Shown: piece by piece, positions 20,097 to 33,832 of the stretch
Numbering within the stretch: the first letter of the stretch is position 1
Layout: every line of letters begins with the position of its first letter
Origin: Burkholderiales bacterium
Lineage (GTDB): Bacteria > Pseudomonadota > Gammaproteobacteria > Burkholderiales > CAIKXV01
Assembly: GCA_038205245.1 (NCBI GenBank)
Contig: JBBRCD010000002.1
Span: 113 to 64,112 of the forward strand
Length of the DNA: 64,000 nucleotides
Direction: 5' to 3'
The notes under the pieces: generated by a model
What the model was told of the DNA's origin: nothing
The model's database searches: none
The model's input: only the letters and a program-made list of their open reading frames with translations
Made by a program: the position numbers and the translations under genes

Positions 20097-21191
20097 CTAC
20101 CGGCCAAGCGCGCGTAACTGCTCGGCATAGGCACGCAGAAAGTCCCGCTGGCAGACGCGATCGATGCTGTCTGCCGACTCGCGCTCGAGTCTGGTGTAGG
20201 TTTCGACCAGCGCCTCCCAGGCATTGGCCCGCCGGTTCAGCGCCAGGGGACCAGACGATCTCGCCGCGGTCTTCTCGAAAATGTCCGGGTCGAAACGCCT
20301 GAGCATGCCCAGCACTGCAGCGCGCATGCCGGCGACCAGGGCCGCCTCATGCGCCTGCAGTTCATGCGCCGCGTCCTGCACCGCTTCTACCGGCAGCATC
20401 AGGTCGGGTCGCCGCCGGGCGGGATCGATCAGGTAGCGCACTGCTTCTGCCGGGTTGGATATCATCCTGAGCGGGTTGCGCTCATGCCCAGAGACCTTCG
20501 TCGAGTCGTTGGCCTGCAGGTCGCGCCTGGCCTCGCTACGGGCCAGCATCAGTTGCATCTGCGCCTCGACCAGTGCCTGCAGCACTGCGCCAGCCTGCTC
20601 GAGAAACTCATCGGCCAGGTCATCCGGAATCTGCAGATAGCCAAGATTGCTGCCACGCAGAAACGCAGCCACACCCCGCCTGGACGCGTCTGCCTGGGCG
20701 CGCCGCTTCGCTGGCAGGCTGGTCTGTTCATCCAAGGTGGAGTCGCCGACCGCGTTGACGAAGCCGGCTGCCAGGGCAGGTCCCTCGGCCAGCGCAGGCC
20801 GAGATGCCGGGGCAGGCCCTTCTGCCGGGGCAGGCCCATCCGCCAGCGCCGGTTCGGCGTTGCCCTCTGGCAGCGGCGCCGCTGCCTGCCCCACCATGTC
20901 GATTACCAGTTCGAACGGCGACATGGTAATGCGCGACCCATCGGCCACCGGCCGCGTCTGCCCGGTACGCATCACCTGTCCATCGACCAGCACCGGGTTG
21001 ACCCGCGAATGCACGGTGAGCTGCCAGCTGCCATCGACCCGCTCGAGGGTCGCATGCAGCCTGGAAATATGCCGGGCCTGGTCGTTGAGAACCACGGCTG
21101 ACTTCTCGTCCCGGCCGATGGTCAGCAGCGACGCGTTCGAGCGGACCTCGTTTGCCAGCGTGCCGGCGTCGTACACCTGGATCAACAGCAT
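20097..21191 (-). CDS. FHA-domain protein with TagH (T6SS Fha1/VasC)-like C-terminal domain
   Basis: N-terminal FHA: LLTIGRDEKSAVVLNDQARHISRLHATLERVDGSWQLTVHS..NPVLVDG. Ala/Pro/Gly linker. The C-terminus AFLRGSNLGYL...FLEQAGAVLQALVEAQMQLMLARSE...ERNPLRMI...AVRYLI...HELQAHEAALVAGMRAAVLGMLRRFDP...FLRAYAEQL follows the remembered TagH C-domain pattern. This has not been confirmed with an HMM. Confidence 0.75.
   Translation of the reverse strand: MLLIQVYDAGTLANEVRSNASLLTIGRDEKSAVVLNDQARHISRLHATLERVDGSWQLTVHSRVNPVLVDGQVMRTGQTRPVADGSRITMSPFELVIDMVGQAAAPLPEGNAEPALADGPAPAEGPAPASRPALAEGPALAAGFVNAVGDSTLDEQTSLPAKRRAQADASRRGVAAFLRGSNLGYLQIPDDLADEFLEQAGAVLQALVEAQMQLMLARSEARRDLQANDSTKVSGHERNPLRMISNPAEAVRYLIDPARRRPDLMLPVEAVQDAAHELQAHEAALVAGMRAAVLGMLRRFDPDIFEKTAARSSGPLALNRRANAWEALVETYTRLERESADSIDRVCQRDFLRAYAEQLRALGR
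20769..20840. repeat. 18-nt tandem repeat x4 (two near-perfect copies tgccggggcaggccc[t/a]tc) inside the FHA-protein linker
   Basis: Encodes the (A/P)EGPA(P/L) hexapeptide repeats in ...ADGPAPAEGPAPASRPALAEGPALAAG... Confidence 0.7.
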
Positions 21192-21393
21192 CGGTCGGGA
21201 CAGAAGCTCAGCGCCAATAATTTCATTTCTGGCCTTCGATCATTACCGTAAACTACGGGTTTATCAAGCGCTCCGATGCCGTTGGCTGCGTCGTTGGCAA
21301 TACAGTTGTCTGCGAAGCTGTTTGCGCAGTTTTTGTTTACGCTGATGATGCGCGCCAGCGCGTGGTCCAATCGCCTCTCGAGCCTGCAGATCC

Positions 21394-23583
21394 ATGAGTG
21401 CCGTTCCGCGCAAGTCCCTTGGCAGATTCGAGATCGTCCGCACGCTGGGCCGGGGCGCGATGGGCATCGTCTACGAAGGTCGTGATCCCCGTCTGAACCG
21501 TCGGGTGGCGATCAAGACGATCCTGCGCAGTGCCATTCTGGACGACGAGGAGGCCAAGCAGTATGCGGCCAGATTCGTGCGCGAAGCGCAGGCGGTCGCG
21601 AGACTGACCCACCCGAACATCGTCGGCGTCTATGACTTCGGCGACCAGGACGACACCACCTTCATCGTGATGGAGTTCATCGACGGAAAGGAACTGAAGT
21701 CGCATCTGGACACCGGGAAGCCGTTCGACTTCCCGACCACAGTGCGGGTGATGAACGAGCTGCTCGGTGGCCTGGGTTATGCCCACAAGCAGGGTGTGGT
21801 CCATCGCGACATCAAGCCGGCCAACATCATGCTCGACAGCGCCGGCCGGGTGAAGCTCACCGACTTCGGCGTCGCCCGCATCACCGAGTCGGCCGAGCGT
21901 ACCCAGGCGGGCACGATGGTCGGCACGCCGAGCTACATGTCGCCGGAGCAGATCCAGGGCCTGCCGGTGGACAACCGCACCGATCTGTTTGCCTGCGGCG
22001 TCATCCTGTACCAGATGCTCACTGGAGAGAAGCCGTTCACTGGCGCCGGGACGTGGACGATCTACAACCAGATCCTGCAGCATGAGCCGCCGCCGGTCAG
22101 CACGATCAATGCCGGCCTGCCGCCGGCGGTAGACCGGGTGGTCAATCGCGCGCTGGCGAAGGACAAGAACGATCGTTATCGCAGTGCGAGCGAATTCTCA
22201 TCGGCGCTGACGGCGCTGCTGATGGGCACGCCGGAAGGTGTGAGTACAGGTGAAGCCGACGAGGAGGCCACGCAGTTCATCCTCGCCTCCGATGCGCAGC
22301 GCATGGCCGACTCGGCGGCACAACGCCTTGCCGACACGTCCGGCGCGCGCACCGCACCAGGTGCCCAGAGTTCGATTCCGCCGGGTGGCGCCAGCGCACA
22401 GGATGTCGAGCTGGAGTTCTGGCGTGCGATCAAGGACAGCAACGATCCGGCCGACTATGAGCTTCATCTGCAGAAGTTTCCGACCGGCGTGTATGGCGAA
22501 CTGGCACGCCGGAAGGCCGATCGTCTGCGCGCGTCGGGCACTCAGGCCGAGCCGACCTACGCCGCGACTTCGCGCGCGCCCGCTGCAGGAACCGAGCCGA
22601 CAATCAACGCCGGACGCGGCGCTGCGGCGCCAGACCTCGCAAGATCGGCGCAGCCCACTGCGCCGCCACCGGCCCGGGTTGAACAGAGCACACCGCAGCC
22701 CACCCGATCGGCGCCCGAACCGGGCAGCAATGACGGTGCAGCGGCGGGCCTCCCGTTACCGCTGGTCGCCGGTGGCATCGGCGGCCTGATCGCGCTGGCG
22801 GTGGGTGGCTGGATGATCTTCGGCGCCGGGTCGGCAACGGCGCCGGTGCCACCGCCGCAGCCTGCGCCGGTGGCGGCCCCGAAGAGCGCGCCGGTGCCGG
22901 CAAAGGCAACCCCGGTCCCGCCGCCGCCAGCGGTCGAGCAACCCGTGCGTCCGAAAGAGAACGAGGACGCGTTGCGCAAGATGGACTCGGCGATGGACCG
23001 GGCCAATGCCGATGTCGCCGCCGACAAGGCCGCGCTCGCCAAGGCTGCGGCAGAACGTGCAGCTGCGGAGAAAGCCGCTGCACGGGCGATCATGGATCGC
23101 GCTGCTGTCGACAAGGCTGCGGGCAAGGCTGCGGCCGATCGGGCTGCGGCCGACAAGGCGGCGGCGGACAAGAGCGCGGTCAAGGCAGCCAGCGATCGGG
23201 CTGCGGCAGAGAAGGCCGCCGCCGAGCGCAATGCTGCTGAACGGACAGCCGCCGAGCGTGCCGCGACTGATCGGGCCGCTGCCGAGCGCGCGGCCGCGGA
23301 GAAGGCAGCTGCTGAGCAACGTGCCGCAGCCGAGAGGGCGGCGGTCGAGAAACTGGCGGCAGAAAAAGCGGCCGTTGCGAAGGCTGCCGCGGAAAAGGCA
23401 GCTGCCGAGAAGGTCGCCGCCGACCGCGCAGCCGCTGCCGAGAAAGCTGCCGCTGCCGAGAAAGCTGCAGCAGCGGAGAAAGCCGCCGCCGCCGAGCGCG
23501 CGGCTGCGGCGCAGCGCCAGGACGCGGCAGCGTCGGCCAAGGCGAACGACGCCGCCAAACGAGCCGGTGGCCGTCAGAACTGA
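21394..23583 (+). CDS. Transmembrane Hanks-type Ser/Thr protein kinase with Pro-rich and Ala-rich (TolA-like) extracytoplasmic tail
   Basis: GRGAMGIVY...VAIK...HRDIKPANIML...DFGVA...GTPSYMSPEQ. One predicted TM helix (LPLPLVAGGIGGLIALAVGGWMIFGA, about residues 452-477). The C-terminal roughly 210 aa are AAEKAAAERAA-type low complexity. Confidence 0.9.
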   Translation: MSAVPRKSLGRFEIVRTLGRGAMGIVYEGRDPRLNRRVAIKTILRSAILDDEEAKQYAARFVREAQAVARLTHPNIVGVYDFGDQDDTTFIVMEFIDGKELKSHLDTGKPFDFPTTVRVMNELLGGLGYAHKQGVVHRDIKPANIMLDSAGRVKLTDFGVARITESAERTQAGTMVGTPSYMSPEQIQGLPVDNRTDLFACGVILYQMLTGEKPFTGAGTWTIYNQILQHEPPPVSTINAGLPPAVDRVVNRALAKDKNDRYRSASEFSSALTALLMGTPEGVSTGEADEEATQFILASDAQRMADSAAQRLADTSGARTAPGAQSSIPPGGASAQDVELEFWRAIKDSNDPADYELHLQKFPTGVYGELARRKADRLRASGTQAEPTYAATSRAPAAGTEPTINAGRGAAAPDLARSAQPTAPPPARVEQSTPQPTRSAPEPGSNDGAAAGLPLPLVAGGIGGLIALAVGGWMIFGAGSATAPVPPPQPAPVAAPKSAPVPAKATPVPPPPAVEQPVRPKENEDALRKMDSAMDRANADVAADKAALAKAAAERAAAEKAAARAIMDRAAVDKAAGKAAADRAAADKAAADKSAVKAASDRAAAEKAAAERNAAERTAAERAATDRAAAERAAAEKAAAEQRAAAERAAVEKLAAEKAAVAKAAAEKAAAEKVAADRAAAAEKAAAAEKAAAAEKAAAAERAAAAQRQDAAASAKANDAAKRAGGRQN

Positions 23584-26500
23584 TCAGGGCTTCGGTTTAC
23601 GCTTGAACTCGTCCGGCAGCAGCACGCCGAGATCGAAGATCGAGAACTCTCGCCCCAGCGGGCCGAGATCCTGCGAATCGCGTAGCAGTTGCCGGCGCAA
23701 CACGCCGGTACCCGAGGTCAGGTCGATCTGCTCGCGCTGGCTGTTGCCCAGAGCCACATAGACGATGGACGCGCCCAGTTGGGCCTGCGACTCGGCGAGC
23801 GAAACGCCAAGCGAGACGGTGTTGCCGACACAGTACTCGTTGAGGCAGTTCACCCGCGTCGTCGTCGACGGCTGGAAGAAGGCGGTGCCGGTGGGAGACA
23901 CGACGGCGCCAAAGCCCAGGGTCACCGTGCTCGCGGAGCCACCGATCGCCAGGCGCTGAGTGGAAGTTCCTATGCTGCCGCTAGCGAGGACGCTTTCGAT
24001 CGCCGGGCTGCGATTGGGCAATGCCGACAGGTCGACCGCGGAGCGCGCTGGCGAGATCAGAAGCAGGCGCAGATCCGGGACGGTCCAGACCGTGCCCGGC
24101 GCCTGCGAGATACCGACCCCACCTCCGGCGAAGGTCGCAGTGACCAACCCGAGCGGCGCGTTGAGCGTACCCATCGCGATGCCGCCAACGCTGTCATGGA
24201 TGTCGAACCGGGTGCCAATGAACGAGGCTGCGCCGGACGATCCGGGATTGGCGAAGTCGTTGCCGTCGTTACGCAGGGTGATGGTCGATGCCGAGCTGAT
24301 CGTGGTGTTGCCGCTGACCCGCACCGCGCTGCCCGCAGTCTGCGACACCGCCCCCGCCGACTGCAGGTTGAGCGAGGTCGCCTGCAGATTGCTTAGAGTA
24401 GTCGCCACACTGTTGGCAATGGTCACCGACCCGGCGCTGGGCAGACTGATCACCCCGGGCAGCACATTGCCCGGGTTGGTCAGGGCCACATCGCCGGTCG
24501 TGTTCAAGGTCACGCTGCCCGGTCCGGTCAACGCAGCGCTCACACTGACGATGTCGCTGCGGTCCAGAACCAGCGCCGAGTTGTTGATCACCGTACCCGT
24601 GCCCAGCGTGCCACTGGTGCCACCGCCACCCACACGCAAGGTCCCGGCGTTGATGCGGGTCGTTCCACTGTAGCTATTGTTGCCGGTGAGGAGTGTCGTG
24701 CCTGACCCGGACTGCACCAGCGCGCCGCTGCCGCTGATCGCATTGCCCACGGTGACGGTGTCACCCCGGTTGATCGCCAGAGTCGCGTTGTTGACTACTG
24801 CACCCGCGCCGAGTGTACCGGCGGCCCCGCCATCGCCGACCTGCAGCGTGCCCGCGCTGATCGTCGTCGTACCGGCATGGGTGTTGGTGCCGGTCAGCGT
24901 CGTCGTCCCGCTGCCGGCCTGCACCAGAGTGCCGGTCCCGCTTATCGAATTGGCCAGCGTTACCGCATCGCCGCGGTTGATCGTCAGCGACCCGTTATTG
25001 GTCACCGCACCGGAACCCAGGCTGCCGCTCGCGCCACCGTCCCCGGCCTGCAACCCGCCAGCCGCGATCACGGTGCCGCCTGTATAGCTGTTGTTGCCGG
25101 TCAGCGTGGTCGTGCCGGTACCCGACTGGGTCAGGCTGCCGCCGCCACTGATCGCGCCGGTCAAGGTCACCGCATCGCTTCGGTTCACCACCAGCGCTGC
25201 ATTGTTCAGCACCGTGCCGCTGCCCAGGCTTCCGGCAGTACCGCCGTTGCCGACCTGCAGCGTGCCCGAAGTGATCGTGGTTGGACCGGTATAAGCGTTG
25301 TTCCCGGTTAGCGTGGTCGTGCCGGCACCCGCCTGAATCAGCCCGCCACTGCCGCTGATCGGGTTGTTCAGCGTCAGCGCATCATTGCGATTGATCGCGA
25401 GGGTGCCACTGTTGGCGACCGTGCCGGTGCCGAGGGTTCCTGCAGCGCCACCATTACCGACCTGCAGCGTACCGGCACTGATCACCGTCGGCCCGCGGTA
25501 GGAATTGTTGCCGGTGAGTGCAGTCGTACCGGTGCCGGCCTGCGCCAACCCGCCGTCACCGCTGATCGCGTTGGCAACGACCACGGCGTCGCTGCGGTCG
25601 AAGGCGATCGTGGCACCACTGGCGACGCTCACGCCAGCAGCGCCGAGCGTGCCACTGGTGCCCCCGTCTCCGACGCGCAGCGTTCCGGCAGTCACCGTCG
25701 TCGCGCCTGCGTAATTGTTGGCACCGGTGAGTGTGGTGACACCACTGCCGGCCTGGGTGATACCCCCGGAACCGCCGAGCGCCGCCGACAGGGTGACCGC
25801 ATCGCTGCGGTTGATCGCGAGTGTCCCGTTGTTGGTCAGTGCACCCGTGCCAAGCGTTCCGCTGGTGCCGCCAGTGCCCACCTGCAGCGTGCCGGCGGCA
25901 ATGGTCGTGGTGCCGGAGTAGTTGTTGTTGCCCGCCAGCGATGTGGTCCCGGCCCCGGACTGGGTCAGCGAACCGGTGCCGGAGATGTCGCCAGCGAGGG
26001 TAACCGCATTGCTGCGATCGACGATCAGACTGCCGTTGTTGGTGATCGCGCCGCCACCGAGCGCTCCAGTCGTGCCGCCCGACCCGACCCGCAGCGTCCC
26101 TGCGCTGATCGTCGTCCCGCCTCCGTAGTCGTTGTTGGCAGTCAGGGTGGTGGTTCCACTGCCCGCCTGGGTCAGGCTGCCGCTGCCGGTTATGGTGTTG
26201 GTCAGGGTGACGGCATCGCTGCGATCGATCACCAGTTCGCCATTGTCGAGGACGGCCCCGGCACCAAGACTGCCGGTGGTACCGCCGCTGCCCACGCGCA
26301 AGACGCCGGCGCTGATCGTCGTGGTCCCGTAACTGTTGTTGACGGTGAGCGTCGTCGTCCCGCTGCCGGCCTGGGTCAGGGAACCGGTGCCGCTGATCGT
26401 GTTGGTGATGCTCAACGCATTGCTGCGGTTGACCACCAGCGCCGCGTTGTTCGTTACCGAGCCACTGCCGAGCGAACCGGTGGTGCCGCCAGCGCCGAGT

Positions 26501-29500
26501 TGAAGCGTGCCAGCGCTGATGGTGGTCGGGCCGGTGTAGTTGTTGCTGCCGGTCAGGATGGTCGTACCGCTGCCCGACTGGGTCAGGCTGCCAGTGCCAC
26601 CTATATCACCCGCCACGGTCACCGCGTCGCTGCGATTGACCACCAGCGCCGAATTGTTGGTCACCGCGCCGCCGCCGAGGCTGCCGCTGGTGCCACCGGC
26701 GCCGATCTGCAAGGTGCCCGCCGCGATGGTCGTGGTGCCGCTGAAGGTGCTGTTGCCAGTCAGCGTGGTCGTACCGGAGCCCACCTGATTCAGAACGCCG
26801 GTGCCGCTGATCGGGTTGTTCACGGTCAGCGCGTTGCTGCGATTGATCGCCAGCGTCGCATTGTTGATCACGCCCCCCCCGTTGCCCAAGGTGCCGATGG
26901 TGACGCCGTTGCCGACCTGCAGGGTGCCCGCGCTGATCGTGGTGGTGCCGGTGTAGCTGTTCGCCCCGGTCAGCGTGGTGATGCCGATACCGGCCTGGGT
27001 CAGACCGCCACTGCCGCCGATGCCCTGGGCAATGGTGACTGCATTGCTGCGATCGACGATCAGCGTACCGCTTACCGCAATCGCACCACTGCCCAGGCTG
27101 CCAGTGGCGCCGCCGGCACCGAGCGAAAGCGCGCTGCCTGTGGCCACTGTCGTCGACCCGGCATAGGTACTGTTGCCAGTCAGTGCCAGCGTGCCGGTGC
27201 CAGTGCGGTTGAACGTGGACGTTGTCGCGCCGACGATCTGGCCTGCGAAGGTGCCGCCGCTGCCGCCGACGTTCAGCGTCCCGGCGTTCAGCTGCACGGT
27301 CCCTGCGCCGCCCAGCCCCCCGATCGTCTGTGTGCCCGACCCGATGTCCAGCGTCGCACCGCTGGCGATCGAAGCCGCGCCAGTGCCATCGCCGAACCGG
27401 CCGGCGCCGGCGACCGTCAAGGTTCCACTGTTGACCGTGGTCGACCCCGAGTAGGTGTTCGCCGCAGTCAGCGTGAGGGCCGAGCCGCCCGACTGCGCGA
27501 TGCCGCCGCTGCCGGAGATCAGGTTGGCCACCGTGATCGCGTTGCTTCGATTGAAGGCAAGCGTACCGTTGGACACGACCGCGCCGGAACCGAGCGTGCC
27601 CGTGATACCGCCGTTTCCGACCTGCAGGGTCCCGGCATCGATGCTCGTCGTACCGCCATAGAAGTTTCCTCCAGTCAGTACGGTTGTTCCGCTGCCTGCC
27701 TGGGTCAGCGCCCCGCTGCCGAAGATCGCGTTGCCGATGGTCAGCGTGTTGCTCCGGTTGATCGCCAGCGTGGCGTTGTTGAAGACGGTACCACTGCCGA
27801 GTGTGCCGGTCGTGCCGCCATCGCCGAGTTGCAGTGTCCCAGCGCTGATCGTCGTCGTGCCAAGGTAGCCGTTGCTGCCGGTCAGTGTCGTCGTGCCGGT
27901 CCCGGCTTGGGTCAGCGAACCGAGCCCGTTGATCGCACCGCTGACAGTCACCGCATCGCTGCGATCGATCACCAGCGACGTGTTGTTGGTCACCGGCCCG
28001 GTACCCACGGAGCCGCTGGCACCACCACTGCCCACCCGCAGCGACCCGGCAAGGATCACCGTCGCGCCGGCATAGTCGTTGTTGCCGGTCAGCGTCGTCG
28101 TGCCGCTTCCCGTCTGGCGCACGCTGCCGCCGCCGGTGATCGTATTGCCGAGGGTCAACGCGTCGCTGCGGTTGACCACCAGCGCCGCATTGTTGGTCAC
28201 TGTGCCGGTGCCCAGGGTGCCGATCGTGCCCCCGTTGCCGACCTGCAGCGCACCCGCGTTGATCACGGTATCGCCATAGCTGTTGTTGCCGATAAGCGTG
28301 GTCGTGCCGGCACCGGCCTGGGTCAGACTCCCGCTGCCGCTCACCGCGTTGAACAACGTAACCGAGTCGCTGCGATTGATCGCGAGCGTGCCGTTGTTGG
28401 TCACCGGCCCGATGCCAAGGGTGCCGATCGTGCCACCGTTGCCGACCTGCAGCGTGCCGTCGTTTATCGTCGTGGGGCCGATGTAACTGTTTGTGGCCGT
28501 CAGCGTCGTAGTGCCGCTGCCCGCCTGGGTCAGCGCACCGGCTCCAGTGATGGGCTGGGCAATCGTGATCGCGTTGCTGCGATTCACGATCAGCGTGCCG
28601 GTGACCGAGATCGACCCGATGCCCCCCAGGCTGCCGGTGGTGCCGCCTGCACCGAGCGAAAGCGCGCTGCCGGCCGCCACCGTGGTCGATCCGAAGAACG
28701 CGCTGTTTGCAGTCAGCGCAAGGGTGCCACTGCCCGTTCGATTGAAGGTCGACAACGGAGAGCCGACGAGCTGCCCATCGAACGTCCCGCCAGTGCCGCC
28801 GACATTCAGCGTACCGTTGTTCAACTGTACCGCCCCGCCTCCGCTCAGGCCGCCGAACGTGTGAAAGCCTGAACCAATATCCAGCGTGGCGCCAGTGACG
28901 ACCGTGGCAGCGCCGGTGCCGATGCCGAACCGGCCTGCGCCGGATACGGTCAGCGTCCCGCTGTTGACTGTGGTGGGTCCGAAATAGATGTTCGCGGCAG
29001 TGAGCGTCACGGTCGAACTGCCGGACTGGGCGATACCGCCAGTGCCGGAGATCGCGTTGGCCACCGTGATTGCATTGCTGCGGTTGAACGCGAGTGTCCC
29101 CGGTGCGTCCACCGTCACCGACCCGCCGCCGAGCAAACCGCTGGTGCCGCCATTGCCGACCTGCAGCGTACCGGCGTCTATCGTCGTCGCCCCCAGGTGA
29201 AGATTGGCTCCGGTCAGCACAGTCGTGCCAGTACCGATCTGGTCGAGACCGCCGATGCCGATGATACGATTGCCGATGATCAGCGTATCGCTGCGGTTGA
29301 CGACCAGCGTTCCACTGTTCAAAACGTCGCCCGCCACCGCGCCCAGAGAACCGGCCGTTCCACCGCTGCCGATCTGCAGCGTTCTCCCCGGGTCGATCGT
29401 GGTGTCGCCGGAATAGCTGTTGCTACCGGTGAGCGTGGCCGTACCTGCGCCTGACTGCCTCAATGCGCCGGTACCACCGATAGCGTTGGCCACGGTCACT

Positions 29501-31842
29501 GCATTGCTGCGGTCGATCTGCAGCGTGCCGCTGTTGTTCACCACGCCGGCGCCCAGCGTGCCGGTGGCGCCGCCGCCGCCGATGTTGAGCGTGCCCGCGC
29601 TGATCGTCGTCGCGCCGAGATAGCTGTTGTTGCCAGTCAACGTGGTCGTGCCACCGCCAGACTGGATCAGGCTGCCGCTGCCGCTGATCGCGTTGCCCAC
29701 GGTCAGTGCATTGCTGCGGTCGATCTGCAGCGTCGCATTGTTGGTCACCGCGCCACTGCCCAGCGTACCGGCCGTGCTGCCGGCACCGACGCGCAGCGTC
29801 CCGCCGTTGATGGTCGTGGTGCCGATATAGCTATTGGCCTGATCGAGCGTCAACGTGCCAGTCCCGCCAGCAACCAGGTTGAGGTTTCCGGTCAGTGCCG
29901 CGGTCTGTGAGCCGGCGCCGGAATGCGCCAGGGTGATCGTCCCGCCTGCCCCGACATTGATCGCGCCCACGGCCAGCGTCGTGGCGCCGGTGACGGCAAC
30001 CGCTGCCGCGCCGGGGTTGGTGGTCGACAGCGTCCTGAGCACAACCGCGCCGCCCCCACCGTCGACCGCCAGCGTGCCACTGCCGGCGTCGATCGACTGG
30101 CCGACAGCCTGGCTGACCCCGGCAGTGCCGGCGGTGATCGACACCCCGGCGCCGATCACGTTCTGGTTGAGTTCGACCTTGCCGCCCGCGCCAGCAGTCA
30201 TCGCAATCGAACCGCCGAAACTCAGCGCGCCACCGACCGTGATGTCGTTGCCCGAATTCAGCACAAGCCCGCCGGTGCCGGTGTTGGTGATCGCGGCATT
30301 GATCGCGATGCTGCCACCGCCCGGTGCCGAATCCAGCGTCAGCGAGTTCGCGGTGTTGTAGGCAGACGCCGGCGTCGCCGCAACGGTGATGCTGCCCGTG
30401 CCCGGTCCGGTAGCGCTGGACGTCTGCACCACCACGTTGCTGCCCACCAGCGCCGCAAGGATCGTGGCCCATTGCAACGTGCCGCCGGTGCCCGCCGGAT
30501 CCGGCAGGAACGGATCCAACGCCGGCCCCGTACCCAGCACATCAGCGGTAGTCGCATTGCTGATGGTGATATCGAGTGGATCGAGCAGCAATCGACCGGT
30601 CAGGCCGAACGGCGCACTCAGATCGGCTGTGCCGCGGAAGTCGAGAAACCTGCGCCCGGAAACTTCGGCGAATCCGCCGCGCCCGCCTTGCGCGCCGCCG
30701 CGTGCGGTCACATGACCAAGGAATCGTGTCGACTGGTCCGACCAGACGATCACCGTACCGCCATCACCGTCGCGGCGGGCGCTGGCATCGATGATCACAT
30801 CGGGCGCGACATAGGTCGCCTGGGCATTCTGCTCCGGACCCAGGCCCTGAAAGTTGCCACCGACCAGGACCGTGCCGCCGCCGGCGCTGCCGCTGGCATC
30901 GATCCGCGCCGCACCGGTGAGTCCGACCCGCTCGCCCAGGATGCGGATCTCGCCACCGCGCAAGCCTGCAGTGGCGCCGAGGGCCTCGACCGTGCCGGAC
31001 ACATTCACCGTTCCCCGCTCGCCACCGGAGATGAACACCTCGCCGTTGCGCTCGACCACCGAGTTGGCCCGTACCACCCCGGACAGGTTGATCACGCTGG
31101 CGGTTGCCTCGCCCAGGGCCCGGGCGCTCAGCACCACCCGCCCACCCTCGGCGGTAATCGCGCCGGCGTTGTCGATCGAGGCGCGCAGCGCTGCGGCATC
31201 GACGTTCAGTCGCAACAGGCCGTCGCCGCGAAGATCGACGCTGACCCGATCGCCAGCGCCCAGCGCCACCGTACCGCCATTGGCCTGGATCGTTCCACGG
31301 TTGATTATCGAGGGTCCGATCAGCGCCACATAGCCGCCGTCGGCCGCGCGCAGACGGCCGTCGTTGATGATCGCGCCGCCAGCGCCTGCAACTGCAAACG
31401 TGTAGCGCCCGGCCATGAAGTCGGCATTGCCGAGCAACAGCGTCGAACCGACGAAGCCGCCGACATCGATCTGCGCATCGCGCCCGAACAGCACGCCGTT
31501 CGGATTGATCAGGAAGACCTGCCCGTTCGCCGACAGCCGGCCGAAGATCTCGGATGCACCGCTTCCGATCACCCGGTTCAGCACTACTGAACTCGCACTT
31601 GGCTGCACGAAGTTCACCGCATTGCCGGCCGCAATGCCGAAGCTCTGCCAGTCGATCGCAGCGCGCGGCGTCGACTGCTGGATGGTCAGCGTGTTGGGTG
31701 CAGAAGCGGAGATCGTGGCAGCGCCAGCGGTGACCTGCCCGCCGGTCGGCAAGCCGGCAGCCAGCACCGGCGTGCTGCCCAGCGCCGACAGGGCCAGCAA
31801 CACCGCTGCGTGCAGTGCAGACCTCCGTCTGAGTTGCCGCAT
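23584..31842 (-). CDS. Two-partner-secretion exoprotein (TpsA; filamentous-haemagglutinin-family N-terminal domain plus PATR-like beta-strand repeats)
   Basis: ORF 23584..31914 (TTG) trimmed to ATG 31842 (GGGGAAACGGGA upstream). Signal peptide MRQLRRRSALHAAVLLALSALGSTPVLAAG. TPS domain ...NFVQPSASSVVLNRVIGSGASEIFGRLSANGQVFLINPNGVLFG..., then GGFAEVSG. This is followed by about two dozen units of G.G.LTQAGSGTTTLTG.N.Y.G.TTI.AGTLQVG.GGT.G.LG.G.V.NN..L..NRSDA.T....I.G. Confidence 0.9.
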   Translation of the reverse strand: MRQLRRRSALHAAVLLALSALGSTPVLAAGLPTGGQVTAGAATISASAPNTLTIQQSTPRAAIDWQSFGIAAGNAVNFVQPSASSVVLNRVIGSGASEIFGRLSANGQVFLINPNGVLFGRDAQIDVGGFVGSTLLLGNADFMAGRYTFAVAGAGGAIINDGRLRAADGGYVALIGPSIINRGTIQANGGTVALGAGDRVSVDLRGDGLLRLNVDAAALRASIDNAGAITAEGGRVVLSARALGEATASVINLSGVVRANSVVERNGEVFISGGERGTVNVSGTVEALGATAGLRGGEIRILGERVGLTGAARIDASGSAGGGTVLVGGNFQGLGPEQNAQATYVAPDVIIDASARRDGDGGTVIVWSDQSTRFLGHVTARGGAQGGRGGFAEVSGRRFLDFRGTADLSAPFGLTGRLLLDPLDITISNATTADVLGTGPALDPFLPDPAGTGGTLQWATILAALVGSNVVVQTSSATGPGTGSITVAATPASAYNTANSLTLDSAPGGGSIAINAAITNTGTGGLVLNSGNDITVGGALSFGGSIAMTAGAGGKVELNQNVIGAGVSITAGTAGVSQAVGQSIDAGSGTLAVDGGGGAVVLRTLSTTNPGAAAVAVTGATTLAVGAINVGAGGTITLAHSGAGSQTAALTGNLNLVAGGTGTLTLDQANSYIGTTTINGGTLRVGAGSTAGTLGSGAVTNNATLQIDRSNALTVGNAISGSGSLIQSGGGTTTLTGNNSYLGATTISAGTLNIGGGGATGTLGAGVVNNSGTLQIDRSNAVTVANAIGGTGALRQSGAGTATLTGSNSYSGDTTIDPGRTLQIGSGGTAGSLGAVAGDVLNSGTLVVNRSDTLIIGNRIIGIGGLDQIGTGTTVLTGANLHLGATTIDAGTLQVGNGGTSGLLGGGSVTVDAPGTLAFNRSNAITVANAISGTGGIAQSGSSTVTLTAANIYFGPTTVNSGTLTVSGAGRFGIGTGAATVVTGATLDIGSGFHTFGGLSGGGAVQLNNGTLNVGGTGGTFDGQLVGSPLSTFNRTGSGTLALTANSAFFGSTTVAAGSALSLGAGGTTGSLGGIGSISVTGTLIVNRSNAITIAQPITGAGALTQAGSGTTTLTATNSYIGPTTINDGTLQVGNGGTIGTLGIGPVTNNGTLAINRSDSVTLFNAVSGSGSLTQAGAGTTTLIGNNSYGDTVINAGALQVGNGGTIGTLGTGTVTNNAALVVNRSDALTLGNTITGGGSVRQTGSGTTTLTGNNDYAGATVILAGSLRVGSGGASGSVGTGPVTNNTSLVIDRSDAVTVSGAINGLGSLTQAGTGTTTLTGSNGYLGTTTISAGTLQLGDGGTTGTLGSGTVFNNATLAINRSNTLTIGNAIFGSGALTQAGSGTTVLTGGNFYGGTTSIDAGTLQVGNGGITGTLGSGAVVSNGTLAFNRSNAITVANLISGSGGIAQSGGSALTLTAANTYSGSTTVNSGTLTVAGAGRFGDGTGAASIASGATLDIGSGTQTIGGLGGAGTVQLNAGTLNVGGSGGTFAGQIVGATTSTFNRTGTGTLALTGNSTYAGSTTVATGSALSLGAGGATGSLGSGAIAVSGTLIVDRSNAVTIAQGIGGSGGLTQAGIGITTLTGANSYTGTTTISAGTLQVGNGVTIGTLGNGGGVINNATLAINRSNALTVNNPISGTGVLNQVGSGTTTLTGNSTFSGTTTIAAGTLQIGAGGTSGSLGGGAVTNNSALVVNRSDAVTVAGDIGGTGSLTQSGSGTTILTGSNNYTGPTTISAGTLQLGAGGTTGSLGSGSVTNNAALVVNRSNALSITNTISGTGSLTQAGSGTTTLTVNNSYGTTTISAGVLRVGSGGTTGSLGAGAVLDNGELVIDRSDAVTLTNTITGSGSLTQAGSGTTTLTANNDYGGGTTISAGTLRVGSGGTTGALGGGAITNNGSLIVDRSNAVTLAGDISGTGSLTQSGAGTTSLAGNNNYSGTTTIAAGTLQVGTGGTSGTLGTGALTNNGTLAINRSDAVTLSAALGGSGGITQAGSGVTTLTGANNYAGATTVTAGTLRVGDGGTSGTLGAAGVSVASGATIAFDRSDAVVVANAISGDGGLAQAGTGTTALTGNNSYRGPTVISAGTLQVGNGGAAGTLGTGTVANSGTLAINRNDALTLNNPISGSGGLIQAGAGTTTLTGNNAYTGPTTITSGTLQVGNGGTAGSLGSGTVLNNAALVVNRSDAVTLTGAISGGGSLTQSGTGTTTLTGNNSYTGGTVIAAGGLQAGDGGASGSLGSGAVTNNGSLTINRGDAVTLANSISGTGTLVQAGSGTTTLTGTNTHAGTTTISAGTLQVGDGGAAGTLGAGAVVNNATLAINRGDTVTVGNAISGSGALVQSGSGTTLLTGNNSYSGTTRINAGTLRVGGGGTSGTLGTGTVINNSALVLDRSDIVSVSAALTGPGSVTLNTTGDVALTNPGNVLPGVISLPSAGSVTIANSVATTLSNLQATSLNLQSAGAVSQTAGSAVRVSGNTTISSASTITLRNDGNDFANPGSSGAASFIGTRFDIHDSVGGIAMGTLNAPLGLVTATFAGGGVGISQAPGTVWTVPDLRLLLISPARSAVDLSALPNRSPAIESVLASGSIGTSTQRLAIGGSASTVTLGFGAVVSPTGTAFFQPSTTTRVNCLNEYCVGNTVSLGVSLAESQAQLGASIVYVALGNSQREQIDLTSGTGVLRRQLLRDSQDLGPLGREFSIFDLGVLLPDEFKRKPKP

Positions 31843-31867
31843 TCCCGTTTCCCCTGGTGCCGATGAA

Positions 31868-31915
31868 CCCACAAACCAACGAACCAACAAGCCAACGAGC
31901 CAACAAACCAACAAC
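31868..31915. repeat. Octamer tandem repeat x6 (cccacaaa ccaacgaa ccaacaag ccaacgag ccaacaaa ccaacaac) in the tpsB-tpsA spacer
   Basis: CCAAC recurs at 31876, 31884, 31892, 31900 and 31908, an exact 8-nt period. Lies 26-73 nt upstream of the tpsA ATG. On the mRNA strand it reads (NNNGUUGG)n. Confidence 0.85.
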
Positions 31916-31972
31916 TGACTCGTCCCGGCTATCGGCGCGGGTTCAACGCGCCCGCACCCGTTGGAAACAACC

Positions 31973-33832
31973 CTACATCAAATCCTTGATCAGTTGCACC
32001 CAAACTCTTGGCGATCCGCGCGATTCTCCAGCCACCACGCTGTCACCGCCGGTACGCCAGGCCAGATCGACCCGCATCAGGTGCGAGCCCGGTCGGGACA
32101 CCCGCAATCCGAGACCCGCGCCCTGCAGTTTGTTGCTGGACGGCACCGGCACCGACTGGCCGCGCGAGCAGGACGCCGCATCATGACAGACGCTGCCTTC
32201 GGCATAGTCGTAGAACAGCGCAAGCGTCGACACCCCCAACCGGTCTGGCCGCAACTGGGCGACCTGCGGCGCGTAGCGCAATTCGCCCTGGAACAACGTG
32301 CCTTCGTCGACGATCAGCTGACCGGTGGGGAAAGCGCGCACGCCGGCCGGACCACCCAGACTGAGGCGCTCGGCCGAGGTGAGATTCTTGCTGGCGATCT
32401 GACCGAGCACCAGCATGGACAGCGACACCGGCCCGCCCCATTCGGCAATCGACTGGACGGTCTGCAGGTCATAGTTGACCTTGGTGAAGCTGCCGTTGGT
32501 GCCCGGTCCGAAGCGGTCGTTGGCCAGTTCAGCCGGGCTGCGGATGTCGACATCTCCCAGCGTCAGCAGCGCCGAACCGAGGGAGATCGACCCATTCTGC
32601 TGGCGGAAGTCGCCGAACACCCCGACCTTGCCCGACCTCACCCGCTTGTCGTTCAGCGTCGGCGGCTGCGTCGCGTCCACCGTGTCGGTAAGCAATTTGT
32701 AGTCGCCAACGATCTGGCCAAACAGATTGGCGTTGCGCGACCGGATGACCGGGTGGGTTGCGAACACCGAATAGCTGTCCGCCTGCCCCTTGGCCTGCAG
32801 ACTGGCGAACGAGCCGCCGAGTTCGTAGTTGACCCGGGTGTAGCCAGCGCCGATCCTGGTTCCGTACGGTCCGACCGGCAGAATGTAGCTCAACCGGCCG
32901 AGTTCGGTCAGCCGGTCTTCCTGCACCAGGAGGCGCAGGCCGAGCTGATCGCCCACGCCCAGCGGGTTGTTGAAGCGCAGGTTGACCCCGGCGCGCAGTC
33001 CGCCCGTGGCTTCACTGCCGCCGTTGTCCAGATCGACCGCAGCGCGCAGCCGCAGCGGCGCATCTTCGACCCGCACCACCAGATCACCCTCGCCAAGGTT
33101 ACGTCCCGGTCTGAGTTCCGAGTTGACTGCGGTCACACCGTTCAGGTCCTGAATCAACAGCAGGCGCCGCTCGAGGTCGTCTTCCCGGATCGGCACGCCC
33201 GCCTGCAGCGTGCCGAGAATGCGGTCGACGACCACCGGTTTCACCTGCGACAGCCCGGCCGTCTCGACTCTGACCCGGCCCAGCCGCCCCTCGACGATGG
33301 CGATCTCGACCACACCGTCGCGCACCTGCTGCTCCGGCAGATAGGCCACGACCGCCACATAGCCCGCCTTGCGATAGACCTCTTCGACCGCGCTCAACAG
33401 ATCGCGCAGGTTGGAGGCGTCCAGCGGCTTGCCAACGAAACCACGCACGGCTGCACCCAGCACATCGGCGCTCTGGCGCGAGTTTCCAGTAAAGCGGAAT
33501 CTGCCCGGCGCCACGCCGGAGACGCCTGACGACGGACGATCCGGCAGAGTCACCGTGGGTGCCGGCGGCGCCACACGCAGGGGTACGCCACGTGGCTCGC
33601 GGGTCTGCTCGAGCAGGGTTCCGGCGTCTGGTCTGGACGCTGGTAACTGCTGCGCATTAGCCGATGAAAACAAGGGCACAGGGAGCAACACTAATACTGC
33701 CATTGCTGCCAGACGAGCTGGCAGACTGGCCGGCAGATGAGCCCGGCAAATGGCCCGTCCGAGCAACCCCGGCACCCCCATGCCGATTGGCGCTCCGGCT
33801 ACCTCGATTTCGCTTTTCCCTATATTTTTCAT
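31973..33832 (-). CDS. Two-partner-secretion outer-membrane transporter (TpsB; ShlB/FhaC/HecB family)
   Basis: 619 aa. Signal-like MAVLVLLPVPLFSSANAQ. POTRA-type FRFTGNS...LSAVEEVYRKAGYVAVVAYLPEQQVRDGVVEIAIVEGRLGRVRVE. C-terminal beta-barrel rich in alternating aromatic residues. The start may instead be ATG 33781 (GGAG upstream). Confidence 0.9.
   Translation of the reverse strand: MKNIGKSEIEVAGAPIGMGVPGLLGRAICRAHLPASLPARLAAMAVLVLLPVPLFSSANAQQLPASRPDAGTLLEQTREPRGVPLRVAPPAPTVTLPDRPSSGVSGVAPGRFRFTGNSRQSADVLGAAVRGFVGKPLDASNLRDLLSAVEEVYRKAGYVAVVAYLPEQQVRDGVVEIAIVEGRLGRVRVETAGLSQVKPVVVDRILGTLQAGVPIREDDLERRLLLIQDLNGVTAVNSELRPGRNLGEGDLVVRVEDAPLRLRAAVDLDNGGSEATGGLRAGVNLRFNNPLGVGDQLGLRLLVQEDRLTELGRLSYILPVGPYGTRIGAGYTRVNYELGGSFASLQAKGQADSYSVFATHPVIRSRNANLFGQIVGDYKLLTDTVDATQPPTLNDKRVRSGKVGVFGDFRQQNGSISLGSALLTLGDVDIRSPAELANDRFGPGTNGSFTKVNYDLQTVQSIAEWGGPVSLSMLVLGQIASKNLTSAERLSLGGPAGVRAFPTGQLIVDEGTLFQGELRYAPQVAQLRPDRLGVSTLALFYDYAEGSVCHDAASCSRGQSVPVPSSNKLQGAGLGLRVSRPGSHLMRVDLAWRTGGDSVVAGESRGSPRVWVQLIKDLM

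Follow-up and report, generated by a model that had tools for sequence, protein, structure and literature searches.

The window analyzed here, a 64,000-nt stretch of the Burkholderiales bacterium contig JBBRCD010000002.1, contains two adjacent genes, tpsB and tpsA, which encode an outer-membrane transporter and a 2752-aa exoprotein (TpsA), respectively. TpsA carries an N-terminal two-partner secretion (TPS) domain, a long shaft of PATR repeats, a DUF5649 repeat and a 219-aa C-terminal region. We estimate at about 0.85 the probability that tpsB and tpsA together form an operon for type Vb (two-partner) secretion, a joint figure that also takes in the export route, the build of the fibre and its role as an adhesin. 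In TpsA, the TPS domain, the 25 PATR stretches and DUF5649 all exceed the curated cutoffs of their families. The TPS + PATR architecture is uncommon but not new; within this unstudied class, TpsA is well preserved and stands out by its many repeats.

The tpsB-tpsA operon and the secretion module

The tpsA gene, which an earlier description of this DNA, made from the sequence alone and called here the preliminary description, had placed at 23584-31842, lies in a single minus-strand open reading frame (ORF, 23584..31914). The ATG at 31842 is a plausible start, and the product begins with MRQLRRRSALHAAVLLALSALGSTPVLAAG. The DNA directly 5′ of this ATG is AGGGGAAACGGGA, and the 24 ORF codons ahead of it are mere read-through of an octanucleotide tract in the intergenic leader. 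The GC content at third codon positions of tpsA is 0.81, similar to that of the neighbouring genes. The adjacent TpsB that had been invoked for export is present as well: tpsB immediately precedes tpsA in the same orientation, and the operon consists of these two genes only. The tpsB product matches ShlB (PF03865, 5.3e-21) and POTRA_2 (PF08479, 3.4e-15) in Pfam. Among solved structures it is closest to CdiB (6wim, 9.8e-15), and FhaC (4qky) is also matched. The coordinates of tpsB in Table 1 use the first possible start; the true start may be further downstream.

The N-terminus of TpsA has the make-up of a signal peptide (an RRR n-region, a hydrophobic core and VLA-AG, as read from the translation), and Pfam reports no ESPR signal-peptide extension for TpsA. 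The TPS domain that follows scores 126.8 bits with PF05860 (1.8e-36; cutoff 33.5) and 78.8 bits with TIGR01901 (2.1e-22; cutoff 29.1). The motifs on which the claim of a canonical TPS N-terminus had been based, VLNRV, NPNGVLFG (here as INPNGVLFG) and GGFAEVSG, are all found in the translation. In a phmmer search against PDB sequences, the best N-terminal match is the adhesin EtpA (8vba, 6.1e-87), in which query residues 12-657 align with chain residues 49-689 (646 residues), followed by HMW1 (2odl, 4.8e-41) and HxuA (4rm6, 3.1e-35). Since residues 12-657 match EtpA, the N-terminal quarter of TpsA is an EtpA-type module, that is, more than a minimal TPS domain: it comprises the TPS domain together with an extended beta-helix that includes GGFAEVSG.

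Table 1. Coordinates of the tpsB-tpsA operon and of the parts of TpsA in the 64,000-nt window
Feature	Position	Strand	Basis or content
tpsB, Omp85/TpsB-type outer-membrane transporter	31973..33832	-	Pfam ShlB and POTRA_2; PDB sequence matches
tpsB-tpsA intergenic leader	31843..31972	-	GC-rich hairpin, then octanucleotide tract
tpsA, 2752-aa exoprotein	23584..31842 (stop codon included)	-	ORF, translation, domain scans
Sec-type signal peptide, ~aa 1-30	31753..31842	-	read from translation by eye
TPS secretion domain, aa 31-285, with NPNGVLFG	30988..31752	-	PF05860, TIGR01901
EtpA-like N-terminal module, aa 12-657	29872..31809	-	phmmer against PDB
PATR shaft, aa 662-2449 (1788 aa)	24496..29859	-	Pfam, NCBIfam, self-lag, unit HMM
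Variant insert 1, aa 943-1038	28729..29016	-	PATR half-unit, then ~50 divergent residues
Variant insert 2, aa 1454-1549	27196..27483	-	paralogue of insert 1
DUF5649 repeat, aa 2470-2533	24244..24435	-	PF18886, 6.3e-10
C-terminal region, function unassigned, aa 2534-2752 (219 aa)	23587..24243	-	conserved stretch, P0254 match

The PATR array and its alleles

The shaft is an array of 23 full units of 69 aa (207 nt) and 2 partial units, corresponding to 25 PATR matches. The units were counted by anchoring on the NRSD motif and by searching with a hidden Markov model (HMM) built from the units. When TpsA is compared with itself, the dominant lag is 69 aa, at 28.6% identity, and harmonics appear at 138 and 207; Tandem Repeats Finder (TRF) gives 207-nt periods for the gene. 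Over 25 stretches each, PF12951 reaches 531.9 bits (cutoff 27) and TIGR02601 494.7 bits (cutoff 19.85). The array of roughly two dozen PATR-like units with a period of 204-210 nt, which the preliminary description had placed at about 24540-29830, is therefore real in position, period and family, and the consensus given there matches the computed one, gtTtLTgnN.Y.G.TtI.aGtLqvG.GGt.GtLG.G.V.nn.gtL..nRSdavT..n.IsG.G.ltQ.G.

The two partial units (aa 944-989 and 1456-1500) each lie within a 96-aa variant insert, and in insert 1 the unit HMM covers the first 46 positions only. According to the unit identity matrix, the two inserts are 74% identical, units 4 and 10 are 73% identical and units 5 and 11 are 75% identical, against a background of ~58%. 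Because of this excess, the two blocks (unit 4, insert 1 and unit 5; unit 10, insert 2 and unit 11), which lie ~510 aa apart, point to one segmental duplication. The 13 units past the second insert form the most regular stretch of the array. In composition, the 1788 residues of the array include no lysine, one glutamate and 40 N-X-S/T sequons, to which most units contribute their NRS.

On the opposite strand, about a dozen ORFs of 66-70 aa with TTG starts, reading MLPVSVVVP or close variants, form a ladder at 25091-29830 (+), and a 790-aa antisense ORF overlaps tpsA at 26500-28872 (+). The ladder had already been taken for an artefact in the preliminary description. These antisense ORFs indeed only mirror the periodicity and the high GC content of the coding strand and are not to be annotated as genes.

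Long periodic arrays are a known hazard in assembly, and mis-joining or collapse in a short-read assembly might theoretically account for the length of the array or even for the TPS-PATR fusion. However, the DNA identity between units has a mean of 57% and a maximum of 78%, and no exact repeat within the gene is longer than 27 nt. The units are thus old and diverged, and a short-read collapse is therefore unlikely. Moreover, a metagenome scan with the unique C-terminus recovered two contigs from other JGI samples, L049 and L050. L049 (13 kb) is colinear with window positions 32758-20768 (12 kb) at 98.4% nucleotide identity, and its TpsA, which differs by 38 substitutions but by no indel, likewise has exactly 2752 aa, so the tpsA ORF is intact in two alleles. 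An independently assembled, distinct allele thereby reproduces the number of units, though this is not a long-read proof. L050 (Ga0105045_10017294) ends within the last unit, 364 nt upstream of the C-terminal region, which shows that the array, although not collapsed, can interrupt a short-read assembly. Contig ends also cut short many of the database relatives. Finally, the TPS-PATR junction is also present in the metagenomic protein P0254, in P0058 and in 27 representative clusters (see below). The concern over assembly that was voiced in the preliminary description is largely answered by the divergence of the units and by L049, and we regard an assembly artefact as very improbable.

The two alleles differ in the intergenic leader. 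About 6 copies of the octanucleotide GTTGGYTY (TRF: period 8, 6.1 copies) occupy positions 31866-31914, just upstream of the tpsA ribosome-binding site and 20-70 nt 5′ of the start, and the tract is preceded by the GC-rich hairpin. In L049 the tract (at about 835-860) is 24 nt, or three octamers, shorter. This length-polymorphic tract could tune the expression of tpsA. The fold of the leader RNA has a z-score of only -2.0.

Relatives of the shaft and of the whole architecture

The closest relatives of twelve of the units are PATR proteins. Among the 120 best, about 50 carry the autotransporter barrel PF03797 and none carries a TPS domain, although this last absence is biased by length, as the word-indexed search listed no match longer than ~1450 aa. 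Long repeat proteins seem to be under-represented or truncated in that search, while a library of representatives gave proteins of up to 6914 aa; such a length bias can skew conclusions on domain architecture. The consensus of the autotransporter-passenger relatives shows the identical 69-aa unit, and in one of them, P0121, eleven units at 69-aa spacing are followed by PF03797. Among PDB sequences, the shaft matches nothing but the PATR stretches of two autotransporters, Ssp and IcsA. As the shaft has its best relatives among autotransporter passengers built on an identical unit, it is justified to speak of autotransporter-type units, as the preliminary description did. However, PATR is not exclusive to autotransporters: it is also present in giant Omnitrophota proteins and in matches with PEP-CTERM, dockerin and cadherin-like domains.

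The PATR-rich autotransporters (ShdA/MisL, Brucella BmaA-C, IcsA, and also P0121 and P0126) have the same 69-aa unit as TpsA, PATR followed by an FNRSD segment, and such relatives are up to 57-61% identical to TpsA over many units. As in the TPS proteins described below, the number of PATR differs between autotransporter orthologues (PMC8111173; PMC9704523). These autotransporters are exported through their own C-terminal 12-strand barrel (PF03797), whereas TpsA has none: PF03797 is not reported at E ≤ 0.01 for the whole protein, nor at E ≤ 1 for the C-terminus, in agreement with the preliminary description.

The above likeness could also be read in another way, namely that TpsA is a degenerate or misannotated type Va autotransporter that has lost its barrel and whose TPS-like N-terminus is coincidental. 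The ShdA equivalog model NF011847, for example, gives 497 bits on TpsA. That score is far under its cutoff of 2249, and the match reflects shared repeats only. Furthermore, the matches to the TPS domain and to the 650-aa EtpA-like module are of high significance, a TpsB gene adjoins tpsA, no remnant of a barrel is detected and the ORF is intact in two alleles. The degenerate-autotransporter reading is rejected by the domain scans, and we leave it hardly any probability.

Ten of the 120 closest relatives of the TPS module carry PF12951. An unindexed HMMER search with TpsA residues 1-1200 against 1.84 billion representatives returned long proteins, and 27 of the 133 new representatives in its top list combine an EtpA-like N-terminus with the 69-aa unit. 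Thus, at least 27 representative clusters have the same architecture, and the rarity implied in the preliminary description was overstated. When six of the 27 were scanned with Pfam, five proved to be TPS + PATR. P0247 has PATR and an ESPR extended signal peptide, with no Pfam TPS domain at E ≤ 1e-5, and its N-terminus is matched by phmmer. Three RefSeq proteins represent the class: WP_354012169.1 of Dyella japonica (4469 aa; 18-20 PATR units plus YDG domains), WP_165847964.1 of Paraburkholderia lacunae (2604 aa; TPS module and 8 unit-HMM matches) and WP_174421797.1 of Burkholderia diffusa (2329 aa; TPS + PATR). The ENA metagenome protein P0266 (2935 aa) contains TPS, 17 PATR at 100-136-aa spacing and DUF5649, with its own TpsB directly upstream, on the unrelated contig L043. 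The JGI metagenome protein P0254 (1928 aa), with TPS, 9 PATR, DUF5649 and the shared C-terminal region, is the closest full-architecture relative and the sister of TpsA in the TPS-domain tree. Among the TPS + PATR proteins examined, the TpsA of the window has the most units. The automatic names of the RefSeq TPS + PATR proteins are inconsistent and include 'autotransporter-associated beta strand repeat-containing protein', 'filamentous hemagglutinin family protein' and 'MBG domain-containing protein'.

In the TPS-domain tree, which is a quick and rough neighbour-joining tree not to be over-read, the PATR-shaft proteins fall into several groups interleaved with proteins that have MBG/YDG or other shafts. 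This suggests a modular exchange of shafts. The TpsA N-terminus also retrieved 42 GTDB-representative loci, and the 69-aa unit is absent from all of them. The TpsA proteins of L003, L009 and L011 have the same EtpA-like module with entirely different shafts, for example MBG/YDG-like repeats, GLUG-like motifs together with a Pro/Gly/Ser-rich tail, or Ala/Gly-rich repeats of ~330 aa. Modularity is high in the clade with the EtpA-like secretion module.

TpsA may accordingly represent a recurrent subclass in which a 69-aa PATR/FNRSD cassette of autotransporter origin was grafted between an EtpA-type module and a DUF5649-type C-terminus, a scenario that we propose tentatively and rate somewhat short of even odds. 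If true, PATR would support secretion and folding from the N- to the C-terminus through TpsB, so that the 'transport repeat' would be independent of autotransporter mechanics. Type Va and type Vb systems would exchange passenger modules, and the length of the fibre would be tuned by the number of units (9 to 25 among close relatives), while the length of the octamer tract might also modulate tpsA expression. To our knowledge, PATR has been studied only in autotransporters, where it is linked to efficient passenger export. The presence of 25 PATR in a protein predicted to be TpsB-dependent, together with a similar family in the databases, therefore offers a natural test of the role of the repeat in secretion: its contribution may be general to beta-helix folding, or it may depend on the transporter and on the direction of folding. 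The folding of PATR units from the N- to the C-terminus in a TpsA, if it occurs, is the one mechanistically interesting point. In other respects TpsA would illustrate the modular exchange of shaft cassettes between type V secretion branches, and it flags the inconsistent automatic annotation of TPS + PATR proteins. It looks like an ordinary surface fibre of an environmental bacterium, and current models are unchallenged.

Predicted fold, export and function

An AlphaFold2 model of aa 872-1315, for which 37 homologues and paralogous segments from the window were aligned (50 sequences), is all-beta and periodic, with ~9 short strands per 69 residues (predicted local distance difference test, pLDDT, 91; predicted template modelling score, pTM, 0.85). 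The strand pattern probably reflects a three-sided beta-helix with three rungs to each 69-aa unit. Given the usual beta-helix rise of 0.48 nm per rung, the shaft would be ~37 nm long and the whole fibre ~50 nm.

A route of export can be proposed because TPS systems are well established (review PMC5422565). The TpsA precursor would cross the inner membrane by Sec, after which the POTRA domains of the neighbouring TpsB would recognise its N-terminal TPS domain. Passage of the chain through the TpsB barrel would follow, and outside the cell it would fold into one long three-sided beta-helix. Folding would be templated by the N-terminal module and would run from the N- to the C-terminus, rather than starting from a C-terminal autochaperone. 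Normally, autotransporter passengers are thought to fold from the C- to the N-terminus, while TpsA proteins are templated from the N-terminal TPS domain. The folding of the PATR array would probably supply the driving force for secretion, as proposed in autotransporters, in which PATR has been reported to make the secretion of passengers more efficient (PMC9977779, citing Doyle et al. 2015). The array itself may be a rigid spacer whose length varies between relatives (9 repeats in the closest relative versus 25 here). Most likely, such a protein serves an environmental, probably betaproteobacterial, organism as an adhesin or as a fibre of the biofilm matrix, and not as a toxin, which is the default role by analogy with EtpA.

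EtpA, an adhesin of enterotoxigenic E. coli (PDB 8vba/8cpk), has its TpsB exporter encoded upstream, as TpsA does, and the two secretion modules are homologous over ~650 residues; HMW1 and HxuA of Haemophilus are more distant members of the same clade. EtpA is a secreted beta-helical adhesin in which a secretion domain and tandem repeat modules form a continuous three-sided beta-helix (PMC11463764). However, its shaft consists of four 228-aa C-terminal repeats and that of TpsA of 69-aa PATR units. The EtpA match stops at TpsA residue 657, and beyond it the shaft matches only PATR-bearing chains, with no repeats of the 228-aa EtpA type. EtpA is also without DUF5649 or a C-terminus matching that of TpsA. 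Finally, EtpA needs the glycosyltransferase EtpC from its own operon (etpBAC), whereas the tpsB-tpsA operon has none.

The C-terminal part of TpsA deserves separate consideration. PF18886 (DUF5649) also matches the isolated C-terminus (3.5e-11). The 219 aa beyond it include the conserved stretch SQREQI.LTSGTGVL..QLLRDSQ.LGP as well as the only two cysteines of TpsA (2666 and 2671), which are not conserved in P0254. This region has no Pfam match at E ≤ 1, no meaningful PDB match and no match in a search of 5.8-billion proteins. Pfam (E ≤ 0.01) reports no FHA-type repeat families, FHA-1/FHA-2, PT-VENN or toxin families in TpsA, and the statement in the preliminary description that the shaft is not made of classical FHA repeats thus holds.

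A C-terminal region without a recognisable family may recall another kind of TpsA, one involved in contact-dependent inhibition (CDI; CdiA/BcpA-like) or in another form of toxin delivery, in which the PATR shaft would present a C-terminal toxin to neighbouring cells. TpsA proteins often bear toxic tips (TPS review PMC5422565), and CdiB is the nearest solved structure to the tpsB product. In the present case, however, the domain families of toxin-delivering TpsA proteins named above are absent, and on its downstream side tpsA is followed by a convergent Ser/Thr kinase gene and not by a small immunity gene. Besides, conservation of the C-terminus equals that of the remaining protein: identity to P0254 is 45% over the full length of the C-terminus and 47% over the N-terminus, and the substitutions in L049 are spread along the protein, with one in the last 300 aa. 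CDI toxin tips are hypervariable, and the pattern of substitutions in L049 is unlike that of a polymorphic toxin tip. Because there are no CDI hallmarks and no immunity gene, and because the C-terminus evolves no faster than the rest, a role in toxin delivery is improbable. FHA/FhaB of Bordetella and CdiA do share with TpsA the two-partner route, a TPS domain with NPNG and a very long beta-helical fibre, the last being predicted for TpsA, but TpsA has no detected FHA-type repeats and no prodomain, toxin or immunity module.

Several observations weigh against the view of TpsA as a TpsB-exported beta-helical adhesin. First, the assignment of three rungs per unit rests on the DSSP strand pattern and not on coordinates. 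Second, the best Foldseek matches in the PDB are beta-helices (Ag43, EspC, Hbp and tailspikes), but with E ≥ 0.018 (0.018 for the best) they are not statistically significant; the class of a beta-helical stalk is supported by the model, without a specific structural neighbour. Third, the single-sequence model of the C-terminal region is a failed one (pLDDT 39), and the 219 aa may contain an enzymatic or toxic tip. Fourth, no sigma-70-like promoter was found. Fifth, no glycosyltransferase of the HMW1C/EtpC type is present among the Pfam-scanned ORFs of the window, so that the analogy with EtpA is partial; a copy may lie elsewhere in the genome. Finally, a literature search turned up no account of proteins that combine TPS with PATR.

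Elsewhere, the window consists of core chromosome: the genes from rpsB-tsf-pyrH via bamA to lpxB, motAB and ppsA/ppsR, together with eno-kdsA-pyrG, pckG and chemotaxis genes. Beside tpsA, at 20097-23583, lies an isolated divergent pair formed by a gene for a type VI secretion-type FHA protein (TagH-like) and a gene for a 729-aa Ser/Thr kinase. No other type VI secretion genes were identified among the scanned ORFs of the window. The kinase gene contains Ala-rich tandem repeats at 23101-23496. The gene with the FHA domain and T6SS_FHA_C (20097-21191, minus strand) has ~54 extra in-frame nucleotides at 20768-20844 in comparison with L049 and L050, and TRF resolves this extra segment into 2.5 copies of an 18-nt period.

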